Assembly: GCA_045539815.1 (NCBI GenBank)
Contig: JAZQGC010000002.1
Coordinates: 11,794 to 75,793, forward strand
DNA from: Candidatus Enterousia sp.
Lineage (GTDB): Bacteria; Pseudomonadota; Alphaproteobacteria; Rs-D84
Reading direction: 5' to 3'
DNA: 64,000 nucleotides
This document shows, piece by piece, positions 3,213 through 58,800 of the stretch. Position numbers and translations under genes: made by a program. The first letter of the stretch is position 1, and every line of letters starts with the position of its first letter. Under the pieces are notes generated by a model. The model was not told the origin of the DNA. It worked only from the letters and a program-made list of their open reading frames with translations, and searched no databases.

Positions 3213-4202
3213 TTATTTTTCCAACCCCAGATGCCGATACCCCAAATCTGTAATCACACGACCACGCGGGGTGCGCTGAACAAATCCCAATTGCATCAAA
3301 TAAGGTTCAATCACATCTTCAATTGTATCGCTTGGTTCGGACAAGGCCGCAGACAAATTTTCAATTCCAACAGGGCCACCTGCATAAAATTTTATTATTG
3401 TATTCATATACTCACGGTCTATTTCATCCAATCCTGATCCGTCAATATGCAATTGAAACAATGTTGTTTTTATTGTATCTGCGCTGATTTCTTTCTTGCC
3501 CAATGCGGCGGCAAAATCACGCGCACGTTTTAACAATCGATTTGCAATACGCGGTGTTCCACGTGCGGCACGCGCCAACATCAACGCACCATCAGCATCG
3601 ATTTGCGTTCCCAAAATATTTGCACTGCGCGAAATAATTTTTGCCAAATCTTCTGGCGAATAAAATGTTAACCTTAAATCAATACCAAATCTGTCCCGCA
3701 ATGGATTAGACAACAAACCCGTACGCGTTGTTGCCCCGACCAGCGTAAACGGGGGCAGGTCGATACGCACACTTTTTGCGCTGGGCCCTTCGCCCAACAT
3801 GATATCCAGTTTAAAATCTTCCATCGCAGAATACAAAACTTCTTCAATTGCCGTTGGCAATCTATGGATTTCATCTATAAACAGAACATCCATTGGTTCC
3901 AGCGCGGTCAAAATTGCCGCCAGATCCCCCTGTTTGGTCAGCATCGGCGCAGCCGTTGCCCGAAAATTAGTACCTAATTCATTTGCCACAATATGCGCCA
4001 ATGTCGTTTTCCCCAGCCCCGGGGGGCCATACAGCAAGACATGGTCCATCGCTTCCCCACGCGCACGCGCCCCGGACACAAACACTGACAAATTCTGTTT
4101 TAAACTGTCATGACCAATAAAATCAGCCAAACAACGTGGACGAATCGTCTGCGCCATATCGTCTGGGATATTTGCATCTAAAAAGCGTTCTTTGTTTTGC
4201 AT
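3213..4202 (-). CDS. ruvB: Holliday junction branch migration helicase RuvB
   Basis: Walker [18 protein letters not shown], and a RuvB C-terminal winged helix. I chose the start at MQNKERF (4202) so it does not overlap the upstream gene's stop at 4204. Confidence 0.95.
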
Positions 4203-4203
4203 T

Positions 4204-4863
4204 TTACAACAACTTATCTTCTTCGTTTTCGCGTCCAACATACGCCTTTAAATCGTTATACATCTGTCGCAAATCTGCGGGCTGGCTGTACATTTCATCC
4301 GCCCCTTTGACACGAATAGTTTCCAAATCTATTTTCGCCTGTTTTTTCAAGACCTGTGTTAAATGTGCTGCAAATGCGCGTGCTTCATCAGATTCCCCAC
4401 CGCCTTGCAACAACAAACCACGATTTGGACGGGGTGACAAGAACGTAAAATCAGATACAGACGCATCTGGCGACACCAAGGCAAAACCTGAAATCTCGGG
4501 ACGGCGCATCATTGCCTGCAACACATACCAGGCCCCCAATTGATTACCTGCCAACCATATCTTATCACTGTCTTCATTATTATTTTGAATCCAGTCAATA
4601 ACTGTTGCGATATCCAACATATTTTCTGCGGTTGTACCAATCAGGCCTTCGGAATCGCCAACCCCACGATAATTAAATCGCACAACAGAAAAACCGATAT
4701 CCATAAACGCACGAAATGTCGCATAAGACACACGATCGTTCATATGGCATTTCTGACGTGGATTTCCCGACAACACAACGGCCAACGGCGCGCCTTCGTT
4801 CGCTGATTTATGATACACAGCATGCAATTTGCCTGCTTCGCCCGAGATGATAATATCTACCAT
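4204..4863 (-). CDS. alpha/beta-hydrolase-fold protein with a degenerate catalytic motif
   Basis: 219 aa. [11 protein letters not shown] and [10 protein letters not shown] resemble a conserved ~215 aa hydrolase family. The nucleophile elbow reads GNQLG rather than GxSxG. Confidence 0.65.
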
Positions 4864-4952
4864 AAGACAACACCTATATTAAAATTAAATTCTTTTTCTT
4901 ATCCCAAATTTAGAACAAAGCGATTATAAATTTCAATAAAAATATTTTTGTT

Positions 4953-4982
4953 TTGACACAAATATCAAAAATGTTCTAATAT
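4953..4982 (+). promoter_or_regulatory. sigma70-like promoter, TTGACA-18-TAATAT
   Basis: TTGACA at 4953-4958 and TAATAT at 4977-4982, about 30 nt upstream of the 5011 start. Confidence 0.4.
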
Positions 4983-5010
4983 TCATACCGAGAGAACCAA
5001 AGGTCATACA

Positions 5011-5925
5011 ATGTTACGAACAGCTGTTGCATCTATTTTAGCAATATTATGCGGATTTTCTGCACATGCGGCGGATTTTGTTGAACAAAATTTCCAAACA
5101 ATTTACACAGAAACACCTGTGCAATCCTATTACGCATACCCAGACGATCCAAATTTTATTCCAGAATCTGAATTCATGGAACGCGCAGACAGTTTGGATT
5201 ACGACCAAAACATTGTTGCCGCACGCGATTTAGAAAGCGCAATGCATCCTGGCGTACAATTTGCCGATAAACCGATGATTATATGTCGTAATTTTGGTTG
5301 CACGCGTTTAAACGACCGCATTACCCGCACATTTTTATTTAACAGCCTGACAAACATGTTCATGATGAACGCACATTCGCGTGTATATATTTGTGAAGCA
5401 GATCCTTTCTCACGCGATTGTTTACAATCTGGCATATCCTTTCCTGTACGCAGTGGTATTGCAAACGCGATGGTAAAAATCCCCAAGGCCACAATATCCC
5501 AGGTCAGCACTTCAACCGGCCTGTCCAAGGCAACTGTTGGCATGACATACGATTTTCTGGTAAACGGTATTGACCGCAAATGCGAACCAACGATTATGGA
5601 CATTGTTGTCCCCGTAAATTCCGAAGCAATCTTGTCAAATCGTGAATTTGCATGCAACATGACCAGTGATGGCATCAGCAGCGTATCCTTAATCGTCAGC
5701 ATTGACTATATTGATTTAGATTATGGCATATTGGGCGGATATTATTCATTGGGCATGCAGGGACCAACCACTGGCGGTGGTACCGGATACGCATTATTTA
5801 AAACAGAATTTACCACCGGTGGTATGCAGTTTCGCGCAGCAGTTGACGCCCAGGCAGATACCGCTGCCAACGCGACACGCACAATTCAACCCGGTGAATA
5901 CGCTGTTGAACCACTAAAAAAATAA
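5011..5925 (+). CDS. hypothetical secreted protein
   Basis: Signal peptide MLRTAVASILAILCGFSAHA/AD. No recognisable domain. Confidence 0.6.
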   Translation: MLRTAVASILAILCGFSAHAADFVEQNFQTIYTETPVQSYYAYPDDPNFIPESEFMERADSLDYDQNIVAARDLESAMHPGVQFADKPMIICRNFGCTRLNDRITRTFLFNSLTNMFMMNAHSRVYICEADPFSRDCLQSGISFPVRSGIANAMVKIPKATISQVSTSTGLSKATVGMTYDFLVNGIDRKCEPTIMDIVVPVNSEAILSNREFACNMTSDGISSVSLIVSIDYIDLDYGILGGYYSLGMQGPTTGGGTGYALFKTEFTTGGMQFRAAVDAQADTAANATRTIQPGEYAVEPLKK

Positions 5926-10334: not shown

Positions 10335-10361
10335 AAAAAATCCCCATGTGGGGATTTTTTT
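10333..10361. terminator. bidirectional terminator between convergent genes
   Basis: A8-TCCCCAtgtGGGGA-T7 palindrome. Confidence 0.7.
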
Positions 10362-12522
10362 AAATCATCGGTGGGAAACATTCATCCGTTCCATCAACGC
10401 AACACAACATACTGCCATTAACATCTGTTGCTGTTTCGCCCGCGCAACAACCATTTGCATCCGGCGCACTGTTATCTGCGCATACATTTTGTGTATCTGT
10501 TTCGTAATCAGGCGACGCAACAAACATCTTCTCTTGTTGCGACACATTATACACCGGCTTTTCAACCACAGGTTCGCTTTCAACCGCAACCACTTCTTCT
10601 GCAACAGTGTCTGTTGTTACCACAGGTTCTGAAACAACTGTTGTGTCATCCACTGTCTGAATTGCCGCATCCAGGGCCTGAACCAACGTGGCGTCCATTG
10701 CTGTTTCTTCGACAATTGGCGCATCCGGTACAACTGGAACATCAGCCGTTACAGTTTGAACAACATCTGATTCAACCACTTCTGCAACCACAGGTTCTGC
10801 AACTTCTTCTGTTACGCCTGTTTTTTCTTCATCTGCAACACTTACCACATCAATAAACGGCGATTCTGTATCTTCTAGCGTCACAAGATTAACCGTTTCA
10901 TCTGTTGTATCTACATAAGATTCTTTTTCTTCATCGATTTGTACCAACTGTGTTTTTGCTTCCAGCTCAGGCACCATATCATCCGTTACAGATTTTTGAT
11001 ATAACCACAATGTAAACACAGACAAAACAATCAAGACAACCAACATAATATAATAAATTTTTGTTGGCTTATTAGACACAGAATTATCAACAACCACTGC
11101 TTCTTCTGCGATTGGCGAAGCAGGGCGCACTGCATCTTCTGCCACTTTTGCAACAACATGATTGTTTGACACATTATCAGTCGCAACAGTCTTTATATCA
11201 GCGTCCCCCAGCACATCTTCTGCGACCAAGTCCGCTTGTTCTGTTGCAATTGGTGTAAATGTATCTAACACAGGCTTTTCTGTTACATATGTTACTTCTT
11301 CTGTTACGGGTTCCGCCACAGGTTCTGCAATTTCATCAAAAGAAACAGGTGGCACAAACGCCAACGGCTGCACAACAGATTCTGAAACAGTATCACCATC
11401 AGATTTGTTATCTTTGTTCTCAATATCTGTCGGATATTCAGACACAACCTCTGGCAACTTATCAAATAAAACTTCTGGCACGCGTTCTGGAACAACTTCT
11501 GGTAATTTTTCTGTTACAACTTCTGGCAAATGATCCTGGACAACTTCTGGCAATTTTTCTGTGACAACTTCTGGCAAATGTTCGGACGCTGCCTTGGGCA
11601 AAAAAACATCCTGTTCTTCTTCAATTTTTTCTGCATCATCAAACACAGGCACAAAATTAATTCCAATGTCCAATATATCAGAAGCCGACTTTTTAACATC
11701 TTCGCTATTTTCTGTTGTATTAAAATCAATGGGTTTAAACGCAATACCTTCATCCAAAATATTTGGATCCTTGTCAAACAGCGGTTTTATTTCATCGTCA
11801 GCCATATTTTCCACCTTGTTTTTCTGTATTATTTCGTGTGTCTGATTCAATTTATCCAGAATTCCCTGGGCAATTACGGCATCTTCACCAGCCGTGTCCA
11901 ATCTTTTTTTTGCGTTTTGCAAACGCTTTTGCGCACGATTCAGCTTTTCACTTGTCGCATCCATTTGCGCTTCTATGCGTAAAACACGAGATGCCGAACG
12001 TTTTGTTGGTTCTGTTCCAATTGCACGTTTTGCATCAGACAAATCCGCCCGCAATTTTTTTAATTTGTCCTTCATATACACAATGGACTGATTTGTCCTT
12101 TGTATTGTATCGTTTGCATGTACCGCCTGTTCTTCTGCTGCGACCAAACGTTCTTGTGCGATTCGTTTTGCAGACTTCTTATAAAAATCATCCAACTGTA
12201 CCAATATTGCATTTAAATCATCTTGGCCATCATACGCATCAAACAATCTGTCATATATCCCCAGCCCATCGTATTCAATATCCAGTTTCTGATACTTATT
12301 ATCTTTTTTTGGTCTGACCGTTTCTAAATCGACACCATAATCATTAGACAGGATATCATCCCATTTCCTGTCATCCACAGGATTTATTACCAATAAAACA
12401 TTAGGCTTTATATCACTGACTGAAAAATCCAGCACAAACACCAGGTTATTATCATCCTCACTGTAAAACGCGCGCATTGAACGACCCTGGACATTAAAAT
12501 CTGTACTGTACAACTTGTTCAT
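10360..12522 (-). CDS. hypothetical bitopic membrane protein (coiled coil, LPEVV repeats, acidic exported region, C-terminal Cys cluster)
   Basis: 720 aa long ORF. One TM helix (IYYIMLVVLIVLSVFTLWLY). Seven copies of an 8-aa xxLPEVVx repeat. C-terminus CCAGETATDVNGSMLCCVDGTDEC. Confidence 0.7.
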   Translation of the reverse strand: MNKLYSTDFNVQGRSMRAFYSEDDNNLVFVLDFSVSDIKPNVLLVINPVDDRKWDDILSNDYGVDLETVRPKKDNKYQKLDIEYDGLGIYDRLFDAYDGQDDLNAILVQLDDFYKKSAKRIAQERLVAAEEQAVHANDTIQRTNQSIVYMKDKLKKLRADLSDAKRAIGTEPTKRSASRVLRIEAQMDATSEKLNRAQKRLQNAKKRLDTAGEDAVIAQGILDKLNQTHEIIQKNKVENMADDEIKPLFDKDPNILDEGIAFKPIDFNTTENSEDVKKSASDILDIGINFVPVFDDAEKIEEEQDVFLPKAASEHLPEVVTEKLPEVVQDHLPEVVTEKLPEVVPERVPEVLFDKLPEVVSEYPTDIENKDNKSDGDTVSESVVQPLAFVPPVSFDEIAEPVAEPVTEEVTYVTEKPVLDTFTPIATEQADLVAEDVLGDADIKTVATDNVSNNHVVAKVAEDAVRPASPIAEEAVVVDNSVSNKPTKIYYIMLVVLIVLSVFTLWLYQKSVTDDMVPELEAKTQLVQIDEEKESYVDTTDETVNLVTLEDTESPFIDVVSVADEEKTGVTEEVAEPVVAEVVESDVVQTVTADVPVVPDAPIVEETAMDATLVQALDAAIQTVDDTTVVSEPVVTTDTVAEEVVAVESEPVVEKPVYNVSQQEKMFVASPDYETDTQNVCADNSAPDANGCCAGETATDVNGSMLCCVDGTDECFPPMI
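11441..11586. repeat. 24-bp-period tandem repeat encoding (x)xLPEVVx units
   Basis: The plus strand shows repeated acaacttctggcaa(a/t)t units, which translate to EHLPEVVTEKLPEVVQDHLPEVVTEKLPEVVPERVPEVLFDKLPEVV. Confidence 0.8.
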
Positions 12523-36053: not shown

Positions 36054-38450
36054 TTACTTCTTTACAACAAAGTTCACCAACTTTTTCGGCACAACAATTG
36101 TTTTGATGATTTCAACACCATCCAATTTTGCACCTGTGGCTTCTTTTGCCGCATCAATAATCGCTGTTTCATCTGCATCGGTGGCGACAACAAATTCTGC
36201 TGCACGTTTACCGTTAATTGACGCAACAATTGTCATTTGCGTCTCAACCAGCTTTGACGCATCAAATGTTGGCCACGGTTCAAATACCAGCATATCATCA
36301 TGCCCCAGTTTTTCCCACATTTCTTCGGTTAAATGCGGTGCAAATGGATTCAATATCTGCAACAGTGTTTCATACGCAGGGCGGGGCATTTTACCACCAA
36401 ACGCATTGATATATTCCATCATTGCAGAAATTGTGGTATTAAATTTCATTTCTTCCAAACGCTGTGTTGCATCGGCAATCAGTTTATGTTGCAAACGTTC
36501 TTGTTCTGCGGTCATTGGCTCATCTGTCAGATTATCCGACAAATTTTCCACACGTTTCAAGAAACGTTGCACACCAGCCAGCGCCCCATCAGTCCATATC
36601 GTGTTATTTTCCCACGGCCCTAACGACAACACCGCAACACGTCCAGCGTCCGCACCAACACTTTCAACCAAATCAGCGACCATAAATCCGTTACCGCGTG
36701 ACTTGGACATTTTAAACCCATCGTTACCCATTAACAACCCCTGGGCGGTTCGTTTTGCATATGGTTCTGGCGTATTTACCAATCCCAAATCATACAAAGC
36801 ATGATGCCAGAAACGCGAATAAATCAAGTGTCTGGTATTGTGTTCATGCCCACCATTATAATGCGTTACCGGCATCCATTTTTCCATCTGTTCACGCGAA
36901 CAGAATTCATCATTGTTTTTCGGGTCCAGATAACGCAAGAAATACCACGAAGACCCCGCCCATCCCGGCATTGTATCTGTTTCGCGTTTTGCCGGCGCGC
37001 CACAATGCGGACAGGTTGTATTTACCCAATCTGTTGCACGTGCCAATGGACCTTCGCCATCATCTGTTGGACGATAATCAGACATATATGGTTGCATCAG
37101 TGGCAATTCAGAATCCGGCACAGGTACCCAACCACATTTTTCACAATGCACCATTGGGATTGGTTCGCCCCAGTACATTTGACGCGAAAATCCCCAGTCT
37201 TTTAATTTATATTTTGTTGTTCCGCGTGCAAAGCCATGTTCAGAACCGTATTTAATTGCGGCTGCAATCGCATCATCTTTACCCATACCATCCAAGAAAG
37301 AAGAGTTTATATGTACACCATCACCTTCCCAGACTTTTCCTTCTTCACCGCCCGCCAGAACAGGGATAATATCCAGTCCAAACTTTTTCGCAAAGTCCCA
37401 ATCACGACCATCATGTGCCGGCACCGCCATAATCGTACCATACGCATAATCCACCAAGACATAATCTGATGTAAACACTGGAATTTCAGTTCCCGTGAAC
37501 GGATTTACCGCCATAATTCCATCCAAACGCACACCGGTCTTTTCTTTTGTTGCATCTGTTCGTTCAATTTCAGATTTTGATGCAGATTCCTTGATATAAG
37601 AACGCACATCATCTGCGTTTTTAATTTTGCCTTCATCCAGCCATTTTTTTACCAACGCGTGTTCTGGCGCAATAACACAGAAGGTTACACCGAATATAGT
37701 ATCAACACGTGTTGTATAAACAGTCATAACATCATCGCCAACCATAAAATCAACATCCGCACCATGGGATTTACCAATCAGATTTATTTCGTCTTTTTTA
37801 ATACGTTCATCAAAATCAACATCTTTCAATCCGTCCAGCAATTTATCTGCATACTTTGACAACGCCAGGTTCCACTGTAACTTTTCTTTTTTTTCAATTG
37901 CCCCATGACAGCGTGGACATTTATTATCTTCCAATTCTTCGTTTGTAAATGTTGTTCTGCAATCGGGACACCAGTTCATTGGCAACGCAGACTTATACGC
38001 CAACCCCGCTTTCCAGAATTGAATAAACATCCACTGGGTCCACTTGATATATTCCGGATCAGACGTTGAAACGCGTGTTTCCGGGCTGACAGACCAACCA
38101 ACACGATCTATCATTTCAGAATAACTTTTAGTTAATTCAGCGGCAACATCGGCAGGATGCTTACCAATTTTTGTTGCATAATGTTCGCCTGCGATTCCCA
38201 TTGCGTCAAACCCCATTGGGAACAACACATCAAAACCGCGCGCACGACGAAATCGCGCCAACACATCGATACCAGAATAATTCAACATATGTCCTGCATG
38301 CATACCCGCCCCAGACAAAAACGGAAATTCTACCAACGTATAAAACCTTGTTTTTGAACCATCATTTTTTGGCACAAACGCACGTGCATCTGCCCATTTT
38401 TTTTGCCATTTTGCTTCGCGTTCATGAATTCTTTTGATATCATCTGCCAT
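36054..38450 (-). CDS. leuS: leucyl-tRNA synthetase
   Basis: A HIGH-like motif (AGMHAGH), KMSKS (FKMSKSRGN) and a CP1 editing domain. Start chosen at MADDIKRIHEREAKWQKKW. Confidence 0.95.
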   Translation of the reverse strand: MADDIKRIHEREAKWQKKWADARAFVPKNDGSKTRFYTLVEFPFLSGAGMHAGHMLNYSGIDVLARFRRARGFDVLFPMGFDAMGIAGEHYATKIGKHPADVAAELTKSYSEMIDRVGWSVSPETRVSTSDPEYIKWTQWMFIQFWKAGLAYKSALPMNWCPDCRTTFTNEELEDNKCPRCHGAIEKKEKLQWNLALSKYADKLLDGLKDVDFDERIKKDEINLIGKSHGADVDFMVGDDVMTVYTTRVDTIFGVTFCVIAPEHALVKKWLDEGKIKNADDVRSYIKESASKSEIERTDATKEKTGVRLDGIMAVNPFTGTEIPVFTSDYVLVDYAYGTIMAVPAHDGRDWDFAKKFGLDIIPVLAGGEEGKVWEGDGVHINSSFLDGMGKDDAIAAAIKYGSEHGFARGTTKYKLKDWGFSRQMYWGEPIPMVHCEKCGWVPVPDSELPLMQPYMSDYRPTDDGEGPLARATDWVNTTCPHCGAPAKRETDTMPGWAGSSWYFLRYLDPKNNDEFCSREQMEKWMPVTHYNGGHEHNTRHLIYSRFWHHALYDLGLVNTPEPYAKRTAQGLLMGNDGFKMSKSRGNGFMVADLVESVGADAGRVAVLSLGPWENNTIWTDGALAGVQRFLKRVENLSDNLTDEPMTAEQERLQHKLIADATQRLEEMKFNTTISAMMEYINAFGGKMPRPAYETLLQILNPFAPHLTEEMWEKLGHDDMLVFEPWPTFDASKLVETQMTIVASINGKRAAEFVVATDADETAIIDAAKEATGAKLDGVEIIKTIVVPKKLVNFVVKK

Positions 38451-38539
38451 TTTTTCAACCTTTTTGATTAAATTTACGGGCACACTGTAATAATAAAACG
38501 GTTTTAATTCAAGTTTTTTATACACCTAAAAAAAGCAAA

Positions 38540-38568
38540 TTGACACCCACAGATAAAAATGCAATAAT
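38540..38568 (+). promoter_or_regulatory. sigma70-like promoter, TTGACA-17-AATAAT
   Basis: TTGACA at 38540-45 and AATAAT at 38563-68. Homologous to the promoter at 40139. Confidence 0.5.
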
Positions 38569-38607
38569 CACAACCGATATATCGACGTAACAGGGGGAAG
38601 CGTTCAT

Positions 38608-39318
38608 ATGAACAAAATAAATAAGCTATTATGGGGAATATTAAGTCTTGGCATCAGCCTTATTTATCGTACAAATGTAGATGCGGCCCACTATACAGAT
38701 ACAAACGCAATAACAAACCCTGCTGTCGGCGACACAATCACTATCGGCTGCGATTTTGGCAATATTGTACTATCACTTGTGTACGCATTTAATCACGCAG
38801 CCAACACAACAAGTGACATTCCACGTGAAGAAAATTGCGTATACCTTGACGAGTATATATGCAACACAACCGCAACTTACACAAGCATGTGCAATTCTTT
38901 TAATCACACGGCAATACCAAAACACTCATCAGCTGTTAATCCATCTGATTTCACATGCAGCACATTAACCTGTCCAAACGGTGGCACATTGGGGCAACGT
39001 GCCGTACTTCAAACTGAGACATTAAATCTAACCAAAAACAGCAATTGTCACCGATATTACACTGGCGGCACTGGTCATCGCTACATTGGCTTTTCTTTTG
39101 TAATCAGTGCAATCACTGCCAGTTCTGGCTGGTACGGCAGCTATAGCAAATTCAACGGCACCAAGGATTGGATATATCAACAATACAGCATTTATTGGCA
39201 ACGCGTTAACAACAATTCTATAAACGATTGTTATCTTGCGCCGGGCACATATACCGACAGCAACGGCAACACATACACCCAAACCGATTCCGACAACAAA
39301 TGCTATTACCAGGAATAA
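38608..39318 (+). CDS. secreted Cys-rich protein, CYY-E family (tandem paralog 1)
   Basis: Conserved leader MNKINKLLWGILSLGISLIYRTNVDA, YTGGTGH motif, and a C-terminus ending CYYQE. Confidence 0.7.
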   Translation: MNKINKLLWGILSLGISLIYRTNVDAAHYTDTNAITNPAVGDTITIGCDFGNIVLSLVYAFNHAANTTSDIPREENCVYLDEYICNTTATYTSMCNSFNHTAIPKHSSAVNPSDFTCSTLTCPNGGTLGQRAVLQTETLNLTKNSNCHRYYTGGTGHRYIGFSFVISAITASSGWYGSYSKFNGTKDWIYQQYSIYWQRVNNNSINDCYLAPGTYTDSNGNTYTQTDSDNKCYYQE

Positions 39319-39330
39319 GGAAACCGCACA

Positions 39331-40128
39331 ATGAATAAACTGAATAAAGTTTTATGGGGAATCATCAGCGGATTTATATCCGTCGTGTATAACTTCAATG
39401 CACATGCACACGACTGCATACTCCATGAAATCGAGAGAATTGCCATCGACTGCGACTCTTCCAATTATGGCAGAAAATGTCCTGACGAACAATTGTCCAA
39501 CCCGACATATAAGAATGAAGCCTTTAGTACTCTGTTGAACACAATTATATATTCTGGGTATTACAACGTTAATGGTGGCGACGAAACACCTGTATATTGG
39601 TTTGCTGACAGTAATTATATTGATGACATATTAGATGCATTCAACACACAAAACGAATGGGTAAATGGTCGCCAATCCATCGCAGTCGATATCGACCATG
39701 AATTTGTCACAAACAGAACATATAACGGGAACATCGATTACGGTTCTTACTGCAACGCGGACTCTGAACAAAGTTGCAGTGGCAAAATAACAAATTGCCC
39801 CAGTCATACAGCCGGTATTCTGGCCAAATATACAACGACGGCATGGGTCGACAACGATGTTATTGAATATATATTGGGGGATTACAATCTGCGCAAAAAC
39901 CCCCAGGGCTATAATAACACCGACAACCCTTTATATGTATTTAACAACATATCATCTGCCATTGCGATTATGACAGTAAAAAATATCAACGATTGCAAAT
40001 ATTTTTATTCATACAGCGGAAAAAAAGCAACCGCATGTCGGGTTGCTCCGACCAGAGAATACAACGGTTCGGATACACGTGGACGATACGCAATCCCGGC
40101 AAACGACACCTGTTATTACGAATATTAA
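39331..40128 (+). CDS. secreted Cys-rich protein, CYY-E family (tandem paralog 2)
   Basis: Leader MNKLNKVLWGIISGFISVVYNFNAHA, C-terminus CYYEY, and the same AAGGAAACCGCACAATGAA 5' junction as paralog 3. Confidence 0.7.
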   Translation: MNKLNKVLWGIISGFISVVYNFNAHAHDCILHEIERIAIDCDSSNYGRKCPDEQLSNPTYKNEAFSTLLNTIIYSGYYNVNGGDETPVYWFADSNYIDDILDAFNTQNEWVNGRQSIAVDIDHEFVTNRTYNGNIDYGSYCNADSEQSCSGKITNCPSHTAGILAKYTTTAWVDNDVIEYILGDYNLRKNPQGYNNTDNPLYVFNNISSAIAIMTVKNINDCKYFYSYSGKKATACRVAPTREYNGSDTRGRYAIPANDTCYYEY

Positions 40129-40138
40129 ACCAACCAGA

Positions 40139-40167
40139 TTGACAACACATGCAAAAATTGCAACAAT
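40139..40167 (+). promoter_or_regulatory. sigma70-like promoter, TTGACA-17-AACAAT
   Basis: TTGACA at 40139-44 and AACAAT at 40162-67, followed by an A9 tract (40180-40188) and an AAGGA SD. Confidence 0.45.
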
Positions 40168-40200
40168 CGTAACGGTTGTAAAAAAAAAGGAAACCGCACA

Positions 40201-40911
40201 ATGAACAGACTGAATAAACTTTTATGGGGCATTCTAAGCTTTGGCATCAGCCTTGTTTATCGCGCAAACACAACAAACGCCAGCATATTCAGCGGTCTTA
40301 CCACTTTTGGCAACGGTAATGTCGGCGACACTATAACAGAATCATGTGACGAAATATTTGGCACAGGAATATTAAAATTCGAAATAATTGAGGCCACCGA
40401 AACAACAACCGAACCAACAAACACGACAAAATGCAGCGACCTGCCAGAATATTGTGACGAGATAACCAGCGAATACAACTATGATTTAGAAGCTTACAAA
40501 ACAAATTCCTATGGATGTGAATATGGCGATTTTCTTAATCTGGTAAATTATCGATATTGCGAGTCATGCCCTGGTGTCGGTTCAACAGACCAATCGCCAC
40601 TCTTTGACTGGTACAAAATATCCCTGGAAGACATCATTTGTTACAGCGAATACACCGGTGGCACGGGGCACGTATTCCGAAAATACAAAATTGGGCTGAT
40701 TGGGACAGACGTTGACCCCGACCCTGAAAGCACCGTTTTAACGGTCGTCAACGGCCGCAAATGCACAACAGAATATTCCAGTTGCGTCGGTTCCATTGAA
40801 TGGTTGGATGTAACTTATACCCCAGACAAAACAGATTGCCGCATATCTGTTAACGCAGGGACCGACGGACGCGGACACTACAAACAAAGATATTGTTATT
40901 ACGAAGAATAA
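40201..40911 (+). CDS. secreted Cys-rich protein, CYY-E family (tandem paralog 3)
   Basis: Leader MNRLNKLLWGILSFGISLVYRANTTNA, YTGGTGH motif, and C-terminus CYYEE. Confidence 0.7.
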   Translation: MNRLNKLLWGILSFGISLVYRANTTNASIFSGLTTFGNGNVGDTITESCDEIFGTGILKFEIIEATETTTEPTNTTKCSDLPEYCDEITSEYNYDLEAYKTNSYGCEYGDFLNLVNYRYCESCPGVGSTDQSPLFDWYKISLEDIICYSEYTGGTGHVFRKYKIGLIGTDVDPDPESTVLTVVNGRKCTTEYSSCVGSIEWLDVTYTPDKTDCRISVNAGTDGRGHYKQRYCYYEE

Positions 40912-40932
40912 AACAAATAAAAACGATTGAAC

Positions 40933-41898
40933 ATGACCAAAAAAACAGAACAAAACACACCAGATATTTCAATAATTATACCAAACCGCAATTATTCGCA
41001 CTATATTGCCGACGCACTGAATTCTGTTTTGCATCAGACTTTTCAGAATTGGGAATGTATTGTGATTGACGATGCCAGCACCGATGACAGCGTATCTGTT
41101 ATTCAAAAATTTGTGGATTCTGATCCGCGTTTCAGACTGTTTCGCAACAAAAAAACATTGGGCACATCTGCGTCCCGTAACATCGGGCTGGACAACGCGC
41201 GTGGGACATATATTGCATTTTTGGATTCCGACGATTCATACACGCAAAACGCATTGGAAACATTGTTCAAATTGGCACAACAGACCAGGGCGCCAATGGT
41301 TGGCGGACACGCCAATATTGTTCCTGTTTCATTTAAATACATCCCGCAAGAGCAAGTACCCATCGCAGACACAAACAATTTCAAAACCATCTATAACCCG
41401 GTAGTATTATTACAGGCCAACCAGAATCATAAATGGTGCTGGATATGGCGTCGCATATATCATCGTGCCTTGATTGGCGATGTTCGTTTTTCAACAAAAT
41501 TCACATCACTGGGCGAAGATTTGGCATTTATGATGGATATTTTATACAGATCGCACCCAACGATTGAAACGCCGGTACCGGTTGTTAATCATCGATATCA
41601 CGATGAAGCAATGACCAATTTGAACAAGCTGGATGAAACATATTTTGACTGGTTTCCGCACTATTTTGAACACCTGCGCGATAACAGTTTGGACAAATAC
41701 GACGCTGAATTTCTGCGTCAAACATATCGTGCAGCGTTTGCATATTTGTTAATGGAAACAATATCACGCCCGCGTAAGTTTAACAAATTACAGATGCAGG
41801 CACGCGCAGTTCTGATTAAATCTTGCAAATTAATTCCGCGTCGTTATCTGACGCGCAAACAACGCTTTTTATGCTGGTTTTTGACATGTCTAAAGTAA
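40933..41898 (+). CDS. family 2 glycosyltransferase
   Basis: ISIIIPNRN...VIDDASTDDS and LDSDD motifs. Confidence 0.85.
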   Translation: MTKKTEQNTPDISIIIPNRNYSHYIADALNSVLHQTFQNWECIVIDDASTDDSVSVIQKFVDSDPRFRLFRNKKTLGTSASRNIGLDNARGTYIAFLDSDDSYTQNALETLFKLAQQTRAPMVGGHANIVPVSFKYIPQEQVPIADTNNFKTIYNPVVLLQANQNHKWCWIWRRIYHRALIGDVRFSTKFTSLGEDLAFMMDILYRSHPTIETPVPVVNHRYHDEAMTNLNKLDETYFDWFPHYFEHLRDNSLDKYDAEFLRQTYRAAFAYLLMETISRPRKFNKLQMQARAVLIKSCKLIPRRYLTRKQRFLCWFLTCLK

Positions 41899-42821
41899 AT
41901 GTATTATATTGTTTTGACAGTAAATTTTGGCGCATGGCGGCGGTTTCCATTGGTTCAATAATGAAAAACCGCGACAGCGGCACCAATATAACGGTATACT
42001 GTATGGTTGCGCCGCACACACGTGGCCGTCGCTATATCAATCGTATTGTACGGCGGGGTGGGGGGCGTTTAGTATGGCGCACAATACATCCGCGTCAAAA
42101 TCCATTTCGCAATCACGACTATTCGCGTTGGTCGCCTGTGATATTTTATCGTCTGTTTGCGCATCGTATTTTCAAGAATCTGGACAAGATATTATATTTG
42201 GATTCTGACACAATCATCCAGACCGATTTAACAAACCTGTACAACACAGATGTACGCGATTACGCAATGGGCGCGATACGCGACATGGCCCCCATACACA
42301 ACCCCAAAGAAAAAAGTGGCCAATATGTTCTTAATTTCAAGCAGAAATATTTAAAGAACGACTTGTATGTAAATTCTGGGGTATTGCTGTTAAACATGAA
42401 CTATATGCGCATTCATGGCGACGAATTGCTGGCGGTTAAGATACCATTAACATACCCCGACCAGGACATTTTAAATGTTGCATTTGATGGAAAAATACTG
42501 GAATTACCATTGCGTTATAACTGCGTACCGGACATGGGGGTTGATATCAAGTTCCCAAAATCAGAATATCTGTATGTAAAAAACAAAATAGAGATTGCAC
42601 ATTTTTACGCGGTAAAGCCATATTATTACCACCACACCCCGCGCAATTCATATGCAATATTCTATCACGCGGCGCGATATGTCGGATTTTATCCAGACGA
42701 ATTCATCAAGGCCGACGAACATCATGCATATCAACAAGAACACAAACGACATCGCACCCAAATACCATTTGTTCGCACGGACAACACCGGACAAATATGG
42801 TTCCTGTGGATGCGGATATAA
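41886..42821 (+). CDS. family 8 glycosyltransferase (LPS/LOS galactosyl- or glucosyltransferase-like)
   Basis: VLYCFDSKFW, YLDSDTII (DxD) and NSGVLLLN motifs. The start overlaps the GT2 stop. Confidence 0.8.
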   Translation: MSKVNVLYCFDSKFWRMAAVSIGSIMKNRDSGTNITVYCMVAPHTRGRRYINRIVRRGGGRLVWRTIHPRQNPFRNHDYSRWSPVIFYRLFAHRIFKNLDKILYLDSDTIIQTDLTNLYNTDVRDYAMGAIRDMAPIHNPKEKSGQYVLNFKQKYLKNDLYVNSGVLLLNMNYMRIHGDELLAVKIPLTYPDQDILNVAFDGKILELPLRYNCVPDMGVDIKFPKSEYLYVKNKIEIAHFYAVKPYYYHHTPRNSYAIFYHAARYVGFYPDEFIKADEHHAYQQEHKRHRTQIPFVRTDNTGQIWFLWMRI

Positions 42822-43939
42822 CCACAGCAACAGGGGACAGGGAACATGCCGGCACAAACAAACAAACAAACAAACAAACAAACAAACGAACAATAGTTAA
42901 ATTTGTTGTTTGTCTTCTTGTTGCTGCATTTCCATTATTTGCATACAGCACAACGCCTTCATTATTGAATTGCTCAACCACGGTTTATATGCACGAAATA
43001 CACCCCGGTGAATCCGGAACAATATACTACAACTCCGGTGCCAACTTGGATTCATATGAAGAATCTTGCGACCACCAAACAAGAATTTCTATAAACCAAT
43101 GCAGAAGAGGATCAAACGGAAGTAGCTGTTATATCAACGATTCAGCAAGTTTTTATTATGCAGAACAATGCCAAGAGCAACCTTGGGACAAATACACAGA
43201 CCTGACAGTATACACTGGCCAACTATCTCCTAAACGTAATCATGATTGGATAAATGGTGTAAATAATTACATAACTTCACAAAAAGCAATATGTTGTGGC
43301 AAGAATTTTGATTATTGTGGCAGCTGTTACAGCAATTATTCTCACACCCATGATGTATATTGGCAATACACAGATTCAGCCATAGTCAACAAATTCAACA
43401 GCATATCCTGGAACGGTGTAAAACATTATTATTTAACAATTGAAGAAAAAATACCGGACTTTATTACATCGAACAAATACTGTTCCGCCGCAAACGATGA
43501 TGGCACCTGTAAAACTTGGGCCACATGTCCAAATGGTGGCAAAGTATATTACCAACAAACCACATATCAATTACAACGCTGTACCAATGAATATGACTGT
43601 GAAGATATTACATCACAAGACGACATTAATAACCATCCTATTTACGAAGCACAATCAGGTAGCACCACCATAGAAGCAACAAAAATTAACGATATAAATT
43701 GCATAAACAAAACCATAGTCGAAGTGAAAACACAAGACGATTGTTATAAAGAATACCTGACCGTAAAACCAAAAAACGATACATTTAATGACGAAAATTC
43801 CAATCAAAAATACGACACAAAAGAAACCTTTACCGATGACACTGGAACATATATTCTGAATGGAAATTATACTGGCAATTGTTTTTACAATGCAGAAGAA
43901 AACTATTGCAGCGAAAACAATTGTTATTTCAGCGACTAA
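42797..43939 (+). CDS. secreted Cys-rich protein, CYY-E family (large member), putatively phase-variable
   Basis: The ORF is in frame from ATG 42797 through the (CAAA)8 tract (TNKQTNKQTNK) into the signal peptide KFVVCLLVAAFPLFAYS. C-terminus CFYNAEENYCSENNCYFSD. Confidence 0.7.
   Translation: MVPVDADITTATGDREHAGTNKQTNKQTNKRTIVKFVVCLLVAAFPLFAYSTTPSLLNCSTTVYMHEIHPGESGTIYYNSGANLDSYEESCDHQTRISINQCRRGSNGSSCYINDSASFYYAEQCQEQPWDKYTDLTVYTGQLSPKRNHDWINGVNNYITSQKAICCGKNFDYCGSCYSNYSHTHDVYWQYTDSAIVNKFNSISWNGVKHYYLTIEEKIPDFITSNKYCSAANDDGTCKTWATCPNGGKVYYQQTTYQLQRCTNEYDCEDITSQDDINNHPIYEAQSGSTTIEATKINDINCINKTIVEVKTQDDCYKEYLTVKPKNDTFNDENSNQKYDTKETFTDDTGTYILNGNYTGNCFYNAEENYCSENNCYFSD
42855..42886. repeat. 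perfect tetranucleotide microsatellite (CAAA)8
   Basis: Counted base by base: C at 42855, 59, 63, 67, 71, 75, 79 and 83. It is followed by the degenerate units CGAA and CAAT. Confidence 0.95.
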
Positions 43940-44658
43940 GAACAGTGTCCCTGGCGCACAAAGCACCCCAAGAATTCGGTATTACCACTGCCACCCTGGA
44001 TGGGCGACGGCACAACACCGCAATTTTCAAACCCGTTTTCCGCAAACGCAGACACAACCCTATCAATTGCATATTGATGCCATGCTTGGTCGCGTATAAC
44101 GCCGTTACAACGGGCGGCAATATCACGTGGAACTTCGAACTGTGGTTTTATCAGGGCAACAACATTTTTTGCGCCCCACGGTGGCAAACACCCAACAATA
44201 TTGACCAATGACACAAAAGACACATCAATAACAATCAAATCAACCATTGATAATGGCTGTAATTCACGAATATCCGTCTGTTCCAGTGACACCACCCGAA
44301 CATCTGTGCGTAAATGTGGCGCCAACTGATTTGTACCAACATCAACCGCATACACACGCGCCGCACCACGCGACAGCAAAACATCGGTAAAACCACCAGT
44401 ACTGGCACCAATATCCAAACACGCCATACCATGTGGATTTATATTAAATTCTGTCAATGCATGCGCCAATTTTAAGCTGCCACGCCCAACAGCATAGGGT
44501 AAATCGCCCGCAACAATCGCATCAGATTCAGCCACCGTCATACTGGGCTTTTTCGCAGGCGCGCCGTTTACCGTAACCAAACCGGCACGAATTGCCGCCA
44601 CGGCACGCGCCCGCGTTGAATAAAGACCACGACTAACCAATGCGACATCTAATCTCAT
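43936..44658 (-). CDS. tlyA: TlyA-family rRNA 2'-O-methyltransferase
   Basis: S4 domain MRLDVALVSRGL and FtsJ-like motif CLDIGASTGGFTDVLL. Confidence 0.9.
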   Translation of the reverse strand: MRLDVALVSRGLYSTRARAVAAIRAGLVTVNGAPAKKPSMTVAESDAIVAGDLPYAVGRGSLKLAHALTEFNINPHGMACLDIGASTGGFTDVLLSRGAARVYAVDVGTNQLAPHLRTDVRVVSLEQTDIRELQPLSMVDLIVIDVSFVSLVNIVGCLPPWGAKNVVALIKPQFEVPRDIAARCNGVIRDQAWHQYAIDRVVSAFAENGFENCGVVPSPIQGGSGNTEFLGCFVRQGHCS

Positions 44659-44690
44659 ACACAAAATAATAAATAAAATTTTTAATAAAA

Positions 44691-45221
44691 TCAATCACCA
44701 TAACCAACGGTCGCCAACATACATTGCCATGTTCTGGAACCGTAGTTATCAGTACCATTAACGTCTCTTTTTGATAAATAAGCCGCACAGTTAGCCGCAC
44801 AATTTTCCGAACATTTTTTGTTGTATATATAAAAATAAATCCATCCCGATTCGAACGGGTGTGTCATTTTACACCAACAATATTCACCATCATTACGTCC
44901 ATAAAAATTGTCGTTCACATCACCATTTGATGCAGCGGTTTGCCCCCAATACCCAGATATATAATTCGGTCCTGCACAACTGTGCAGTGGCAAATTCGTT
45001 TTATCCGACTTTAATGTACTGCACGACGCAACGCCACTGACCGCGCCAAAACCATTAATATTTATACGCCAATCAAAACCATCACCCACATATCCGGATG
45101 CGGTTGTGTTTTTGTAATCCGTTCCCAATACAACCTGGTCCGATTTGGCGCAAAATGTCGCACCAGACGCAATCAACGGGCACAACGCAATATATAAAAC
45201 AACCAAAATATTCCTGAACAT
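44691..45221 (-). CDS. secreted Cys-rich protein, CWC family
   Basis: Start at MFRNILVVLYIALCPLIASGA. Motifs GVASCS and YCWCKMTHPFESGWIYF...C...C...CA. Confidence 0.65.
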   Translation of the reverse strand: MFRNILVVLYIALCPLIASGATFCAKSDQVVLGTDYKNTTASGYVGDGFDWRININGFGAVSGVASCSTLKSDKTNLPLHSCAGPNYISGYWGQTAASNGDVNDNFYGRNDGEYCWCKMTHPFESGWIYFYIYNKKCSENCAANCAAYLSKRDVNGTDNYGSRTWQCMLATVGYGD

Positions 45222-45238
45222 CAGTATCCCTTTTGTTA

Positions 45239-45721
45239 TTACCATACTGCTTCGAATAATTTATCCCGAAACGCATAACTGCCCACGACACCATCGGCGC
45301 ACAGGCGCGCACATCCCGACGTACACAAATCCACACTGTCATATGAACGCAAATACATAAAATAACTGGTCGCGGGACGACGCAACGCACACCAACAATG
45401 TGCCCCCATATCATCAGCCGGCACGACCTGATTTCCCGTTACAACCGTATATTGCGCCCCCGCAGAAAATTCACTGCACGACGCAACACCGCGCAAGAAC
45501 CGAAATGTACCGTTCATCGATGACATTGTGTCGTAATCAACGTCAACCCGCCAATTCATACCATCAATCTGGGGCGCGCCATACTTAACAGAATTATCCG
45601 TATCCTTGTCCATCGTAACCACGACCGAAAAATCGGTCTGACACATCACCCCAATTGCCACACCGGGCAGGGCACATAACAACATCATCACACACCAGAT
45701 AAATTTACCTTGTATAATCAT
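45239..45721 (-). CDS. secreted Cys-rich protein, CWC family
   Basis: Signal peptide; motifs RGVASCS and HCWCALRRPATSYFMY...C...C...CA. Confidence 0.65.
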   Translation of the reverse strand: MIIQGKFIWCVMMLLCALPGVAIGVMCQTDFSVVVTMDKDTDNSVKYGAPQIDGMNWRVDVDYDTMSSMNGTFRFLRGVASCSEFSAGAQYTVVTGNQVVPADDMGAHCWCALRRPATSYFMYLRSYDSVDLCTSGCARLCADGVVGSYAFRDKLFEAVW

Positions 45722-45730
45722 TATCGGTCC

Positions 45731-46570
45731 TTATTTTACGGCATGATAAAAATTATCTTCGTACATTATGTTTATGGCGCCTTTGCTTTTTTCCGGCACC
45801 AGATTAACATAACATTGACGATTACCAGACTTAAAGTTTAACGATGGGGTCGTCAATTTTTTTGCATATATCGGGATTACCAAACCACCACCCGTACGCA
45901 AATAACGCATACTGACCCCCGTACTGGTCAACGCGCATAAATTGGCACAATTACCCAAATAGTTCATATCTTGTCCGGCGGCACACAAACGCACCGCCAA
46001 CTTTGTATCCGGCACATCAGTATACGGATACCCATGTATTGATATCAGGCTGTTATCTGTCAAATTCGAACCATCGTATGGCGAAACAAGACGTGTACCC
46101 GACGGACAATCAAGACCATTGGCCACAACACGCATTGAATCATTCGAAAACACATTATTATATCCCGCCGGACAATTTTCTGTATCAGGCGCATACGACA
46201 CACAACCCACACCATCAAAATATCCGTTTTCACACATGGTTACCGGAATTTGATTTAACATATACACCCCAGGCTTACGCATCCGATGCGTGGCCTCTGG
46301 GCATGTACCATCAGTCCGGGGCATACCAATTCCAAACAAATTTACTGTGATATAATTATCGGCACAATAATCATTTGCGACATATTTCTGACATGAATAT
46401 TCAACTGTTTTTGTGGTTGTTTCTGCGGCCTCATCAGTTATTTCTGTAACCGTCATCACCGGATATCCACCATCACACAGCATCATATCGGGCAGGGCGC
46501 CATACACAGTCGCCGAACACATGAACATCATAAAAAATATAAATATCCCCCACATATCGCCATCACGCAT
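45731..46570 (-). CDS. secreted Cys-rich protein with CP[AS]G modules and the TTPSL-type C-terminal domain
   Basis: Signal peptide IFIFFMMFMCSATVYG. C-terminus IPIYAKKLTTPSLNFKSGNRQCYVNLVPEKSKGAINIMYEDNFYHAVK. Confidence 0.65.
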   Translation of the reverse strand: MRDGDMWGIFIFFMMFMCSATVYGALPDMMLCDGGYPVMTVTEITDEAAETTTKTVEYSCQKYVANDYCADNYITVNLFGIGMPRTDGTCPEATHRMRKPGVYMLNQIPVTMCENGYFDGVGCVSYAPDTENCPAGYNNVFSNDSMRVVANGLDCPSGTRLVSPYDGSNLTDNSLISIHGYPYTDVPDTKLAVRLCAAGQDMNYLGNCANLCALTSTGVSMRYLRTGGGLVIPIYAKKLTTPSLNFKSGNRQCYVNLVPEKSKGAINIMYEDNFYHAVK

Positions 46571-55877: not shown

Positions 55878-58800
55878 TCACAATACGCTATCATCATGCA
55901 CCCAATATGGAACCCCCTTGTCAACGATGCGCAAGGCGCGATTTGATTCCGTATTCATTTTTGTTTCTGTTTTGGACATATCGCCATAATATACCACCCC
56001 GTCGACACGCACATGTAACGATGGCGTTGTACGCTTTACTGAACGCAAATACAGTTTATTTTCACCAATATGTAAAATACGTCCGCAATCAGTACTTTCA
56101 TCTGCCCCCTTGCCATATCCGATTGTACGCAACGCATCTTTACACTGATTGCGTCCGACATATTGTAACGACAACTGTTGCAATATATCACCGGCATTGT
56201 TATCTAACTGTCCTTCTGCCGACGGCGACCAGTAACCATCGCCAACCTTGGCACAAGTATTTTCAATCGCATCTTGTGGGCCGGTTGCGACATATACATT
56301 ATTTATCAGATCATTAACATCGGTTATATCTGCGTTATGTGGCGACCAATATCCTGGCCCGCACATCAGTGCGACACCTGTACAATTTGCATCATACAAT
56401 TTTGTCACAGGGTTGTAATCACAGCTGACATAGAATAATCCCCGTTCATTTACCTTGTCATCATATCCTGCATCAACATTTGTATTGTTTTGAAGATCCA
56501 AATACCAACGTTCTGCGTATCCGAACACCGCACGACATTGGTTTGCCGCGGAATGCGGCGCATGTTCCAACGCATCCAACAATTCTGCACTTGCTGCGCC
56601 ATATTTTTCTGTTATTGTCGGACACTTCTCTAATCCTTGGACTTGACCATTATATTCCCAGGCCCCGCCCGTACAGAACGAATCGTCTGGACATTCTGCG
56701 CAAACATCACCATTTAAATAATATCCGGCATCACAAGATATAGAACTGATAGACCATTGTGCAGTCAAATTAATCACCGCATTATTTTCAGCCGTCGCAT
56801 TAACCAAAGACGCCCCAGGTTGAATCACCTTGCCATCGCAACTGCCACCGCTGCACAACCAACCAACAAAATTATAACCAGTCATTACAAACGCATTATT
56901 TTCCGCGACACAGCCACCATCATAGTTACAAACAACATCTGCCATATCACCAGACCCAAGGCCCGCATTATATTTCACAGTAAATGTGTTTGCCACGCAT
57001 GCATTTGTTGTTACGGTTGTGCCACCATTATAATTATATCCCGTGTTACATGTACAGCTTGCCTGACCTGTGGCGCCATTTGTGGACGAATTTGCCGGAC
57101 ACGCATTACACTGTGCGCTGTTTGTTTCTGTCCAAGTATTTGCACCACATGTTGTAATATTGTTATCGGAACATGCAGACCCCGCCGGACAAGTTACACA
57201 TACACCATTGTTCATATAAAGACCAGAATAACAACTGCTGACAGAACACAAATCACAATTTGTATATGCGCCTGTTTCTTCTTCGTACATACAAGACCTG
57301 ACACCTGTTCCTACTTCCGTGGAACACTCAACCACAGGCAACATACACTCTTCAATAGATCCCGCAGTATCTGTCAGCGTTACACCCCCATCCGGACATG
57401 CGTGTGTGATATTTGTGTCAGAAAACATACATTTTTCGGTTTCTTCTTCTGGCAGGCTAACACATTGTTCTGCACCAGCAGACCAATTATTATATCCAAC
57501 AGGAACACATATATTGTTAATAGCTTCTTGTGGATTTGACGCATAAACCATTAAAGACATAACGTCGATATTACCATATTGAACATCCAGAATATCGTTA
57601 TCAAAATTAGAAACGTACCCCGTACCACAAAAAGTTGCATACCCGCGACAATCGCTATCATATTGTTGTGTTGTTGTATTATATTTACAATCTACCACAT
57701 AATATCCTCTATTATTGGCATTCCAATCAAAATCGTCACCATCAATATTTGTCTCTCCAAGATCAGCAAACCATTTTGGAAGATACACAAATAAAGCTCT
57801 ACATTGGTTAACCGACGAATTGCGCGTCTCATCTAAAAGCCCCCCATTGTATGCGCTTGCCGCACCATACTTGTTTGTTACTGCTGGGCAGTCTGTTCTG
57901 CCGTGGATTCCACCGTCATATAACCACTCGCCACCTTCGCAATAATATTCATCTTCGCAGTCGATACAATATAAACCATCCAGATATTGTCCTGCTGGGC
58001 ATGAAATAATTACAGGTTTCCATTGTGCAACAAAAACCAAGCTATCCATATTTACATCCGTCAAATCTGACACAGTTTGCCCATCTGCAAATTTTTCGCC
58101 ATTAAACAGCCAACCATCAAATTCATGTCCCGCTTTATAGAAAGTGTTTTTATTTAAAACACATGATGTACCATATGTGCATGTTGTATCTGTCATACTG
58201 CCATCGCCACCATTTGCATTGTATCTGATGGTGTATGTGATTGGTTCCCATTGTGCATACAAGAACAAACCTGCGCCCTGTGTTGACGATGCATTTTTAA
58301 GGTTTGCACCATCTTCAAAATACTGGCTTTTATCGTAATTTGCCCAATTCTTGAATATGTATCCCGTTTTTGTATATGTGTTTGCGCTAATGTAACAGTC
58401 GGAATTATATGTACATGTTGTGTTTGCCATACTGCCATCGCCACCATTAGATACATATATGACAGTAAATGTATTTGCCGTCCATTGCGCTGTAAATGTA
58501 ACACTGGCACCGTTCGTGCTGGTCAGATTGGTATCAATGGTCGAACCCGACTGATATGTTGTTGAAACATACTGCCATCCAGCAAATGTATAACCAGTTT
58601 TTGTTGGTTTTGTGCTGGATACGGTACAATTTTGACCGTATGTACATATTGTGTCTGCTATACTGCCATCGCCACCGTTTGTATTATACTTAATTGTATA
58701 TGTGTTTGCCACGCATGCATTTGTTGTTACGGTTGTGCCACCATTATAATTATATCCCGTGTTACATGTACAGCTTGCCTGACCCGTGGCACCATTTGTG

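Follow-up and report, generated by a model that had tools for sequence, protein, structure and literature searches.

The 64-kb stretch of Candidatus Enterousia DNA analyzed here (hereafter the window) contains a gene for a cysteine-rich orphan protein with eight perfect CAAA units near the 5' end of its coding region. From the sequence, we consider it likely that changes in the length of this (CAAA)n tract drive a translational phase-variation switch for an exported protein read from the ATG at position 42846. The Shine-Dalgarno (SD) sequence, ATG, tract, and signal peptide coding of the gene are almost base-for-base alike in at least three Candidatus Enterousia-like lineages, the number of units and the frame differ between genomes, and the open reading frame (ORF) is intact in both genomes in which it is out of frame with that ATG. 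In the mechanism we propose, translation would start at ATG 42846, 24 nucleotides (nt) past the stop codon of a GT8 glycosyltransferase gene and behind an AGGGGA SD motif. The tract in its ON frame would then encode (QTNK)n in the charged n-region of the signal peptide, a position in which the gain or loss of three units should be tolerated. Slipped-strand mispairing at replication would add or remove 4-nt units. With T the number of all units, including a degenerate CGAA, the gene would be ON at T = 1 mod 3 (7, 10, 13, 16), and in the other two frames translation would halt at an invariant TAG or TAA after peptides of 16–24 amino acids (aa).

A census of all 1–8-nt simple sequence repeats (SSRs) placed (CAAA)8 at 42855–42886 of the forward strand, the same coordinates as read from the sequence itself. 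It is the only tetranucleotide tract of more than three units in the window, in which the longest homopolymer does not exceed 9 nt. The number of 32-nt period-4 tracts expected from base composition is about 6e-12; the tract is real and far beyond chance. Its length is also within the range of frequent slippage, with the instability threshold borrowed from published Haemophilus work, and relatives carry 13–15 units. Tandem Repeats Finder reported a longer array (42854–42893, period 4, 10.0 copies, 94% matches), since it took in the CGAA and CAAT that come after the perfect units. The unit is not a multiple of three, and the perfect tract lies inside an ORF past the start codon, beginning 9 nt after ATG 42846. 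The order in the window is TAA (42819–42821), CCACAGCAACAGGGGACAGGGAAC, ATG (42846), CCGGCA, (CAAA)8, CGAA, and CAATAGTTAAATTT. The last of these places TAG (42894–42896) and TAA (42898–42900) in the two OFF frames directly after the tract, which accounts for the shortness of the OFF-frame products.

Translation of the window from ATG 42846 reads MPAQTNKQTNKQTNEQ and then terminates at the TAG. This ATG lies 47 nt before the in-frame ATA codon at 42893, and one additional unit (51 nt) or the loss of two (39 nt) restores the frame; in general, this distance equals 11 + 4T. With 7 or 10 CAAA units in the window, both ATG 42846 and a second ATG further upstream, at 42797, are out of frame. A preliminary description of this DNA had predicted a slipped-strand translational switch from these same eight units, with the better SD in front of an out-of-frame ATG 42846 that stops at the same TAG, and had given the same rule for the gain and loss of units. 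The sequence and the census agree with it on the tract, the SD, and the stop codon, its arithmetic holds, and the differences in count and frame among orthologues, described below, support the switch that it proposed.

The relatives were reached through the neighboring genes. The TlyA-like protein encoded downstream, searched against GTDB representative genomes, led to a syntenic locus in L003 (88% protein identity), and clusters of GT8 proteins, followed to their contigs, yielded four further copies of the 5' block. L003 is a metagenome-assembled genome (MAG) of Ca. Enterousia sp. that is about 82% identical to the window at the nucleotide level and has the same GT8-gene-TlyA arrangement. Its orthologue is a 364-aa ORF beginning MPTQTNKQTNKQTNKQTNKQTIVKFIVCLIVAAFPLFAYS, with an ATG that aligns with 42846 of the window, and reads in frame as MPTQ(TNKQ)4TIVKF.... 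The intergenic and signal peptide DNA of the two genomes is nearly identical (100% over the 30 nt of the signal peptide core), in contrast to just 49% identity of the mature protein. L009, a contig from the species group of the window, is much closer to it, with 94–100% identity per 100-nt block (mostly 98–100%) over 41050–42924 and beyond 43704, and its tract is exactly 24 nt longer (15 units against a total of nine) despite flanks that are about 99% identical. L009 is out of frame from both ATGs, with about 350 codons open downstream, and in the window and L003 the corresponding ORF is likewise open over about 350 codons. In-frame (L003) and out-of-frame (window and L009) states are therefore both found at this site, with the ORFs of the OFF genomes intact (Table 1).

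Two patterns had been named in advance as counting against a switch, namely exactly eight units in all relatives and orthologues that share the N terminus and lack the repeat. Neither was seen: the counts are 13 (L003), 15 (L009), at least 14 (L008), and at least 13 (L016), and the position of the repeat is the same in these orthologues. A role for the tract as a mere variable-length linker was also considered and was rejected because the differences between genomes are not confined to multiples of three units.

That the true tracts are all in frame, and that the unit counts of the MAGs and contigs are simply wrong, is in our view extremely unlikely. Two of the five assemblies, those of L008 and L016, do break inside the tract, which is suggestive at most of mixed lengths, and some contigs are of low coverage, about 3–5x by their names. 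However, a tract of 32–64 nt fits within single Illumina reads and within a k of 141, the value that appears in the name of the L009 contig (k141), and exactly six whole units separate the window from L009 in sequence that is otherwise about 99% identical. Were a count wrong, the most likely cause would be a sample with tracts of mixed length.

Table 1. Features of the locus in the window, and the CAAA tract in the window and in related genomes. T, total units including CGAA; distance, from the predicted native ATG to the in-frame ATA codon.
Feature or genome	Position	Strand	Tract	Distance (nt)	Remarks
GT8 glycosyltransferase gene, upstream	41871..42821	+			PF01501, E 1.2e-30; stop TAA 42819-42821
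ATG in GT8 3' end, apparently incidental	42797..42799	+			From GT8 codons ATA TGG (Ile-Trp)
SD-like AGGGGA	42832..42837	+			9 nt before ATG 42846, counted from last G (42836)
Predicted native start codon (MPAQ...) of the putative phase-variable gene	42846..42848	+			L003 homologue starts its in-frame ORF here
(CAAA)8, predicted mutable tract	42855..42886	+			ON frame would encode (QTNK)n in signal peptide n-region
Degenerate ninth unit CGAA	42887..42890	+			CAAA in L003 and L009 (alignment, unit count)
Rest of predicted signal peptide	42887..42949	+			R/K residues, hydrophobic core FVVCLLVAAFPLF, A-Y-S cleavage motif
CAATAGTTAAATTT, invariant	42891..42904	+			Identical in window, L003, L008, L009, and L016
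Mature cysteine-rich orphan protein	42950..43939	+			Stop TAA 43937-43939
Window			(CAAA)8 + CGAA, T = 9	47	OFF from native ATG
L009 (ENA ERZ27316723)			(CAAA)15	71	OFF from native ATG
L003			(CAAA)13	63	ON from native ATG
L008 (ENA ERZ28594298)			At least 14 units, then 93 N inside tract
L016 (ENA ERZ28633557)			At least 13 units; contig begins inside tract		Third lineage, about 80% identical to both others

The preliminary description had drawn an ON state for the assembled sequence from ATG 42797, which it had noted to overlap the 3' end of the GT8 gene, to have no obvious SD, and to be in frame. Translation and inspection of the upstream regions agree on all three points: the ATG opens a 380-aa ORF reading ...EHAGTNKQTNKQTNKRTIVKFVVCLLVAAFPLFAYS, and neither an SD nor another purine-rich motif was found upstream of it. 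Only in the window assembly does its frame match that of the downstream ORF. The matching site reads ATA in L003, and in L009 the equivalent ATG is out of frame because the G-run of the SD region has one extra G. This run is G4 in the window (42833–42836) and G5 in L008 (1773–1777) and L009 (1738–1742), which alters the frame relation of the GT8-embedded ATG to the tract in both. Homology between the window and L002, which carries a different allele, breaks exactly at 42822, just past the GT8 stop, and ATG 42797 accordingly lies outside the gene cassette and within conserved GT8 coding. With a start at this ATG, the hydrophobic core would also be preceded by about 34 residues.

For ATG 42846, a comparison of 58 window ORFs revealed that G-rich motifs at a spacing like that of its AGGGGA are common upstream of ORFs, and the paralogue at 38608 has AGGGGGAAG at a similar position. 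The start of the alternative allele in L002 (allele B) lies 21 nt past the GT8 stop, compared with 24 nt for ATG 42846. Taken together, the L003 orthologue, the L002 homology break, the SD, and the distance to the hydrophobic core identify ATG 42846 as the predicted native start and ATG 42797 as an apparently incidental one. The window gene is then most likely OFF from its native start (T = 9), so that the open frame of the earlier account stands and the ON state read from it most likely does not. The 380-aa ORF was considered as a real gene and rejected on the lack of an SD, the ATA in L003, and its start inside GT8 and outside the cassette; it is probably a gene-calling artifact. Gene callers return this ORF from the ATG in GT8 for the window and a leaderless 315-aa ORF for L008 and L009, and the OFF alleles are mis-annotated in consequence.

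A switch with three levels of expression would result if both ATGs were used and the 8-unit state were a second ON. Ribosomes that terminate at the GT8 stop would reach ATG 42797, protein would be made in two of the three frames, and the 8-unit ON would probably be weaker, with a 30-residue N-terminal extension. There is a precedent in the lic1 locus of Haemophilus influenzae, where Weiser et al. are reported to have described in 1989 alternative ATGs in different frames upstream of a CAAT tract. The 42797 frame is, moreover, open through the tract in the window assembly, and the GT8 stop is about 24 nt from both ATGs. We nevertheless judge this arrangement unlikely, given the ATA of L003, the missing SD, the extra G that puts the L009 equivalent out of frame as well, the approximately 34 residues that would precede the core, and the fact that ATG 42797 belongs to conserved GT8 coding rather than to the variable cassette. 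It is not a conserved and usable second start of the lic1 type.

We return to the product predicted from ATG 42846. The candidate Sec-type (SPase I) signal peptide was judged by inspection of the translation only. The leader runs from K/R residues through FVVCLLVAAFPLF to A-Y-S, and the cleavage motif of L009, by eye, is A-H-G. Two hypervariable segments of the gene (42925–43403 and 43604–43703) have 56–73% nucleotide identity to L009, compared with 94–98% for the rest, and many cysteines are invariant in an alignment of five orthologues. The cysteines fit an extracytoplasmic, disulfide-bonded protein, and mosaic variability of this kind fits what is typical of exposed proteins under diversifying selection. 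We infer that the protein would be surface-exposed or secreted, with diversifying selection coming from host immunity, a partner cell, or phage.

No family in Pfam, NCBIfam, or PHROGs matched the product from its signal peptide on. In a word-indexed search of a library of 5.8 billion proteins, neither the single sequence nor a 3-sequence profile retrieved anything beyond the protein itself and one partial relative, and an exhaustive phmmer search of 1.84 billion representatives added one further partial relative. Protein-guided scans for the gene found nothing in JGI metagenome contigs or GTDB representative genomes. The exact 30-nt signal peptide probe had no match in metagenome contigs, the tract-plus-flank probe had none in viral contigs, and an exact-sequence look-up of the window protein (P0001) also gave none. 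AlphaFold2 run on a 3-sequence alignment yielded an unusable model with a predicted local distance difference test (pLDDT) score of 34.6.

The slot between the GT8 and TlyA-like genes holds the repeat allele, allele B, a deletion, or a leader remnant. L002 is a Logan contig that is 96–98% identical to the window on both sides of the slot, and within it the whole gene is replaced by the unrelated, repeat-free allele B (MNKTKRILWGI..., 3546–4595, reverse strand). Repeat-free allele B is also present downstream of GT8 in L012–L015 and occurs in several strains of both species groups, and its similarity to the window gene is limited to about 80 C-terminal residues with 32% identity. L010 lacks the whole gene through a clean deletion that runs from the SD through the last sense codon, with the junction in 3451–3480. 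The 5-nt near-repeats GCAAC/GCGAC flank the corresponding segment of the window (42827–42831 and 43932–43936), and a single GCAAC is found at the L010 junction. L011 has a leader remnant only. L016 has an in-frame TGA in its signal peptide coding (FP*FA, within 1–110), with the other approximately 335 codons open. The deletion, the remnant, the replacement, and the TGA of L016 show the gene to be dispensable. Dispensability is usual for contingency genes.

Two further observations concern allele B. In L012 a run of A7 at about position 4100 splits it into two ORFs, and in an alignment with L013 and L015 the others show A6 there. At a contig coverage of about 4.6x, the difference may reflect either a misassembly or a second mutable homopolymer. 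L001 and L014 both come from GCA_036309105.1, in which the 5' part of allele B ends contig 38 and a repeat-type 3' part starts contig 166, reflecting either two genes in tandem or a strain mixture in the sample.

Because the gene is dispensable in relatives, there is room for the view that in the window and L009 it is a young pseudogene with a fixed frameshift, and that the repeat differences are slow drift. Deletion, replacement, or interruption affects the gene in several relatives, and two of the three complete copies are out of frame. Even so, we regard this as very unlikely. Both OFF genomes keep about 350 codons open downstream at a GC content of about 40%, and a perfect tract of 13–15 units is kept in lineages that are about 80% identical, although unselected SSRs decay. 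The 5' block is also far more conserved than the mature protein, and slippage at such a tract is intrinsically reversible.

Several points weigh against the phase-variation switch that we favor. There are three complete tract counts only, all from metagenome assemblies, in which the consensus of an SSR can be arbitrary, and the ON state is seen in one genome only (L003). The tract of the window is the shortest, with eight perfect units and the CGAA interruption, and its switching rate may be low. The losses of the gene (deleted in L010, a remnant in L011, replaced in L002 and L012–L015, and with a TGA in the leader of L016) belong here as well, and the window gene may carry a fixed loss of function. 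The call of a signal peptide depends on inspection of the sequence. Set against the tract anatomy and the polymorphism in count and frame, these points leave a translational switch from ATG 42846 as the likely explanation, and we infer that switching within a population would be frequent and reversible.

The GT8 gene is about 99% identical to that of L009 at the nucleotide level, and its product is 100% identical to a 316-aa database protein (P0008). It runs in the same direction as the repeat-bearing gene, and because of this and the 24-nt spacing from its stop to the predicted native start the two are probably co-transcribed. A promoter scan of 38400–44800 gave 20 sites, compared with 20.6 in shuffled sequence, and was uninformative on a separate promoter. 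The upstream genes are GT2 and GT8 glycosyltransferases, and the convergent gene downstream encodes the TlyA-like S4/FtsJ methyltransferase; it and the repeat-bearing gene overlap at their stop codons (43936–43939) without intergenic space or terminator.

Six orphan cysteine-rich genes with signal-peptide-like N termini flank the locus (38608–40911 on the forward strand and 44691–46570 on the reverse), and their proteins had no match in Pfam or NCBIfam. The genes at 38608, 39331, and 40201 and allele B of L002 have the near-identical leader MNK.NK.LWGI. The L002 orthologue of 38608 has 69% protein identity, compared with 97% DNA identity of the flanks, and 38608 may be a second fast-evolving gene. 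In L003, a gene at 4169–5101 on the reverse strand, a few kb from the locus, specifies a microvirus-type replication initiation protein (phrog_942, E 9e-53) and may belong to an integrated or co-binned small single-stranded DNA phage. Ca. Enterousia, of the order Rs-D84, are uncultured alphaproteobacteria of the farm-animal gut with genomes below 1 Mb that lack the tricarboxylic acid cycle and respiratory chains (PMC12306168). Elsewhere in the window, in-frame 24/48-nt tandem repeats (at most 93% matches) occupy 11444–11587 of a 720-aa ORF (10360..12522, reverse strand), and 55878–61664 on the reverse strand holds a 1928-aa ORF, very large for a genome expected to be below 1 Mb.

The arrangement resembles several contingency loci. 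The lic1A, lic2A, and lic3A genes of H. influenzae are reportedly (CAAT)n translational switches, described in 1989 by Weiser, Love, and Moxon. As at the present locus, a tetranucleotide tract lies a few codons past the start and the gain or loss of units shifts the frame, more than one upstream ATG can be involved, and the setting is a glycosyltransferase or lipooligosaccharide (LOS)-type neighborhood in a host-associated, small-genome bacterium. Unlike lic, the unit here is CAAA rather than CAAT, the second ATG is not conserved, and the predicted product is an orphan secreted cysteine-rich protein rather than a cytoplasmic LOS-modifying enzyme; the host is an alphaproteobacterium of Rs-D84 and not a member of the Pasteurellaceae. 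Tract length is said to set the switching rate, as De Bolle et al. are reported to have found in 2000.

The opa genes of Neisseria carry (CTCTT)n inside the signal peptide coding region and are multi-copy, with about 4–11 loci. They share with the Enterousia gene a repeat in the leader peptide coding of an exported protein, a mature part that is a hypervariable mosaic, and ORFs that are intact in both ON and OFF alleles. In opa, however, the pentamer encodes the hydrophobic core, whereas the tetramer here would encode the polar n-region, and one copy was seen here in contrast to the multi-copy opa family; the proteins are related neither in sequence nor in any known fold. PMC11868660 lists the phase variation of Opa and also cites De Bolle et al. 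2000. The hgp genes of H. influenzae likewise combine a 5'-terminal tetranucleotide tract in an exported-protein gene with translational ON/OFF control. In hgpA, hgpB, and hgpC, (CCAA)n stands at the junction of signal peptide and mature protein. The hgp products differ in being TonB-dependent hemoglobin receptors, and the hgp tract follows the leader, whereas ours precedes the hydrophobic core.

Within the alphaproteobacteria, badE of Bartonella is a contingency locus with a mononucleotide SSR in an adhesin gene (PMC11466379). It too is an SSR frameshift switch in an alphaproteobacterial surface-protein gene, and its ON/OFF state varies among natural isolates (PMC11466379). The badE tracts differ in being mononucleotide and inside a trimeric autotransporter adhesin gene, and badE switching was demonstrated experimentally by passage (PMC11466379). 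Bartonella also belongs to the order Hyphomicrobiales and differs in lifestyle. The earlier suggestion that such a switch was undescribed in this kind of alphaproteobacterium must accordingly be narrowed in view of the Bartonella SSR loci, and it holds for the lineage itself: the literature yielded no comparable contingency locus for Candidatus Enterousia or the order Rs-D84.

The mechanism is already known from Haemophilus lic and Neisseria opa; the lineage and the protein family are new. We suggest, with more doubt than confidence, that the SD, ATG, (CAAA)n, and signal peptide form a portable phase-variable export leader that stays intact as recombination shuffles the ectodomain behind it, and that genome-reduced cells, probably dependent on a partner or host, bet-hedge in this way on one exposed protein. 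Such a protein could mediate attachment or be a target of phage or immunity, a third expression level might be provided by the GT8-embedded ATG, and, if this were true, no contingency locus would have preceded it among ultra-small gut bacteria of this class. On the practical side, OFF alleles of this kind mislead gene callers. The combination of a contingency locus with a hypervariable, apparently exported, lineage-specific protein would point to one molecule under strong fluctuating selection. Tetranucleotide SSR switching would thereby be extended from the classical mucosal pathogens to an uncultured, reduced-genome gut bacterium, and the locus would offer a concrete handle on the interaction of Ca. 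Enterousia with its host, partner cells, or phages.

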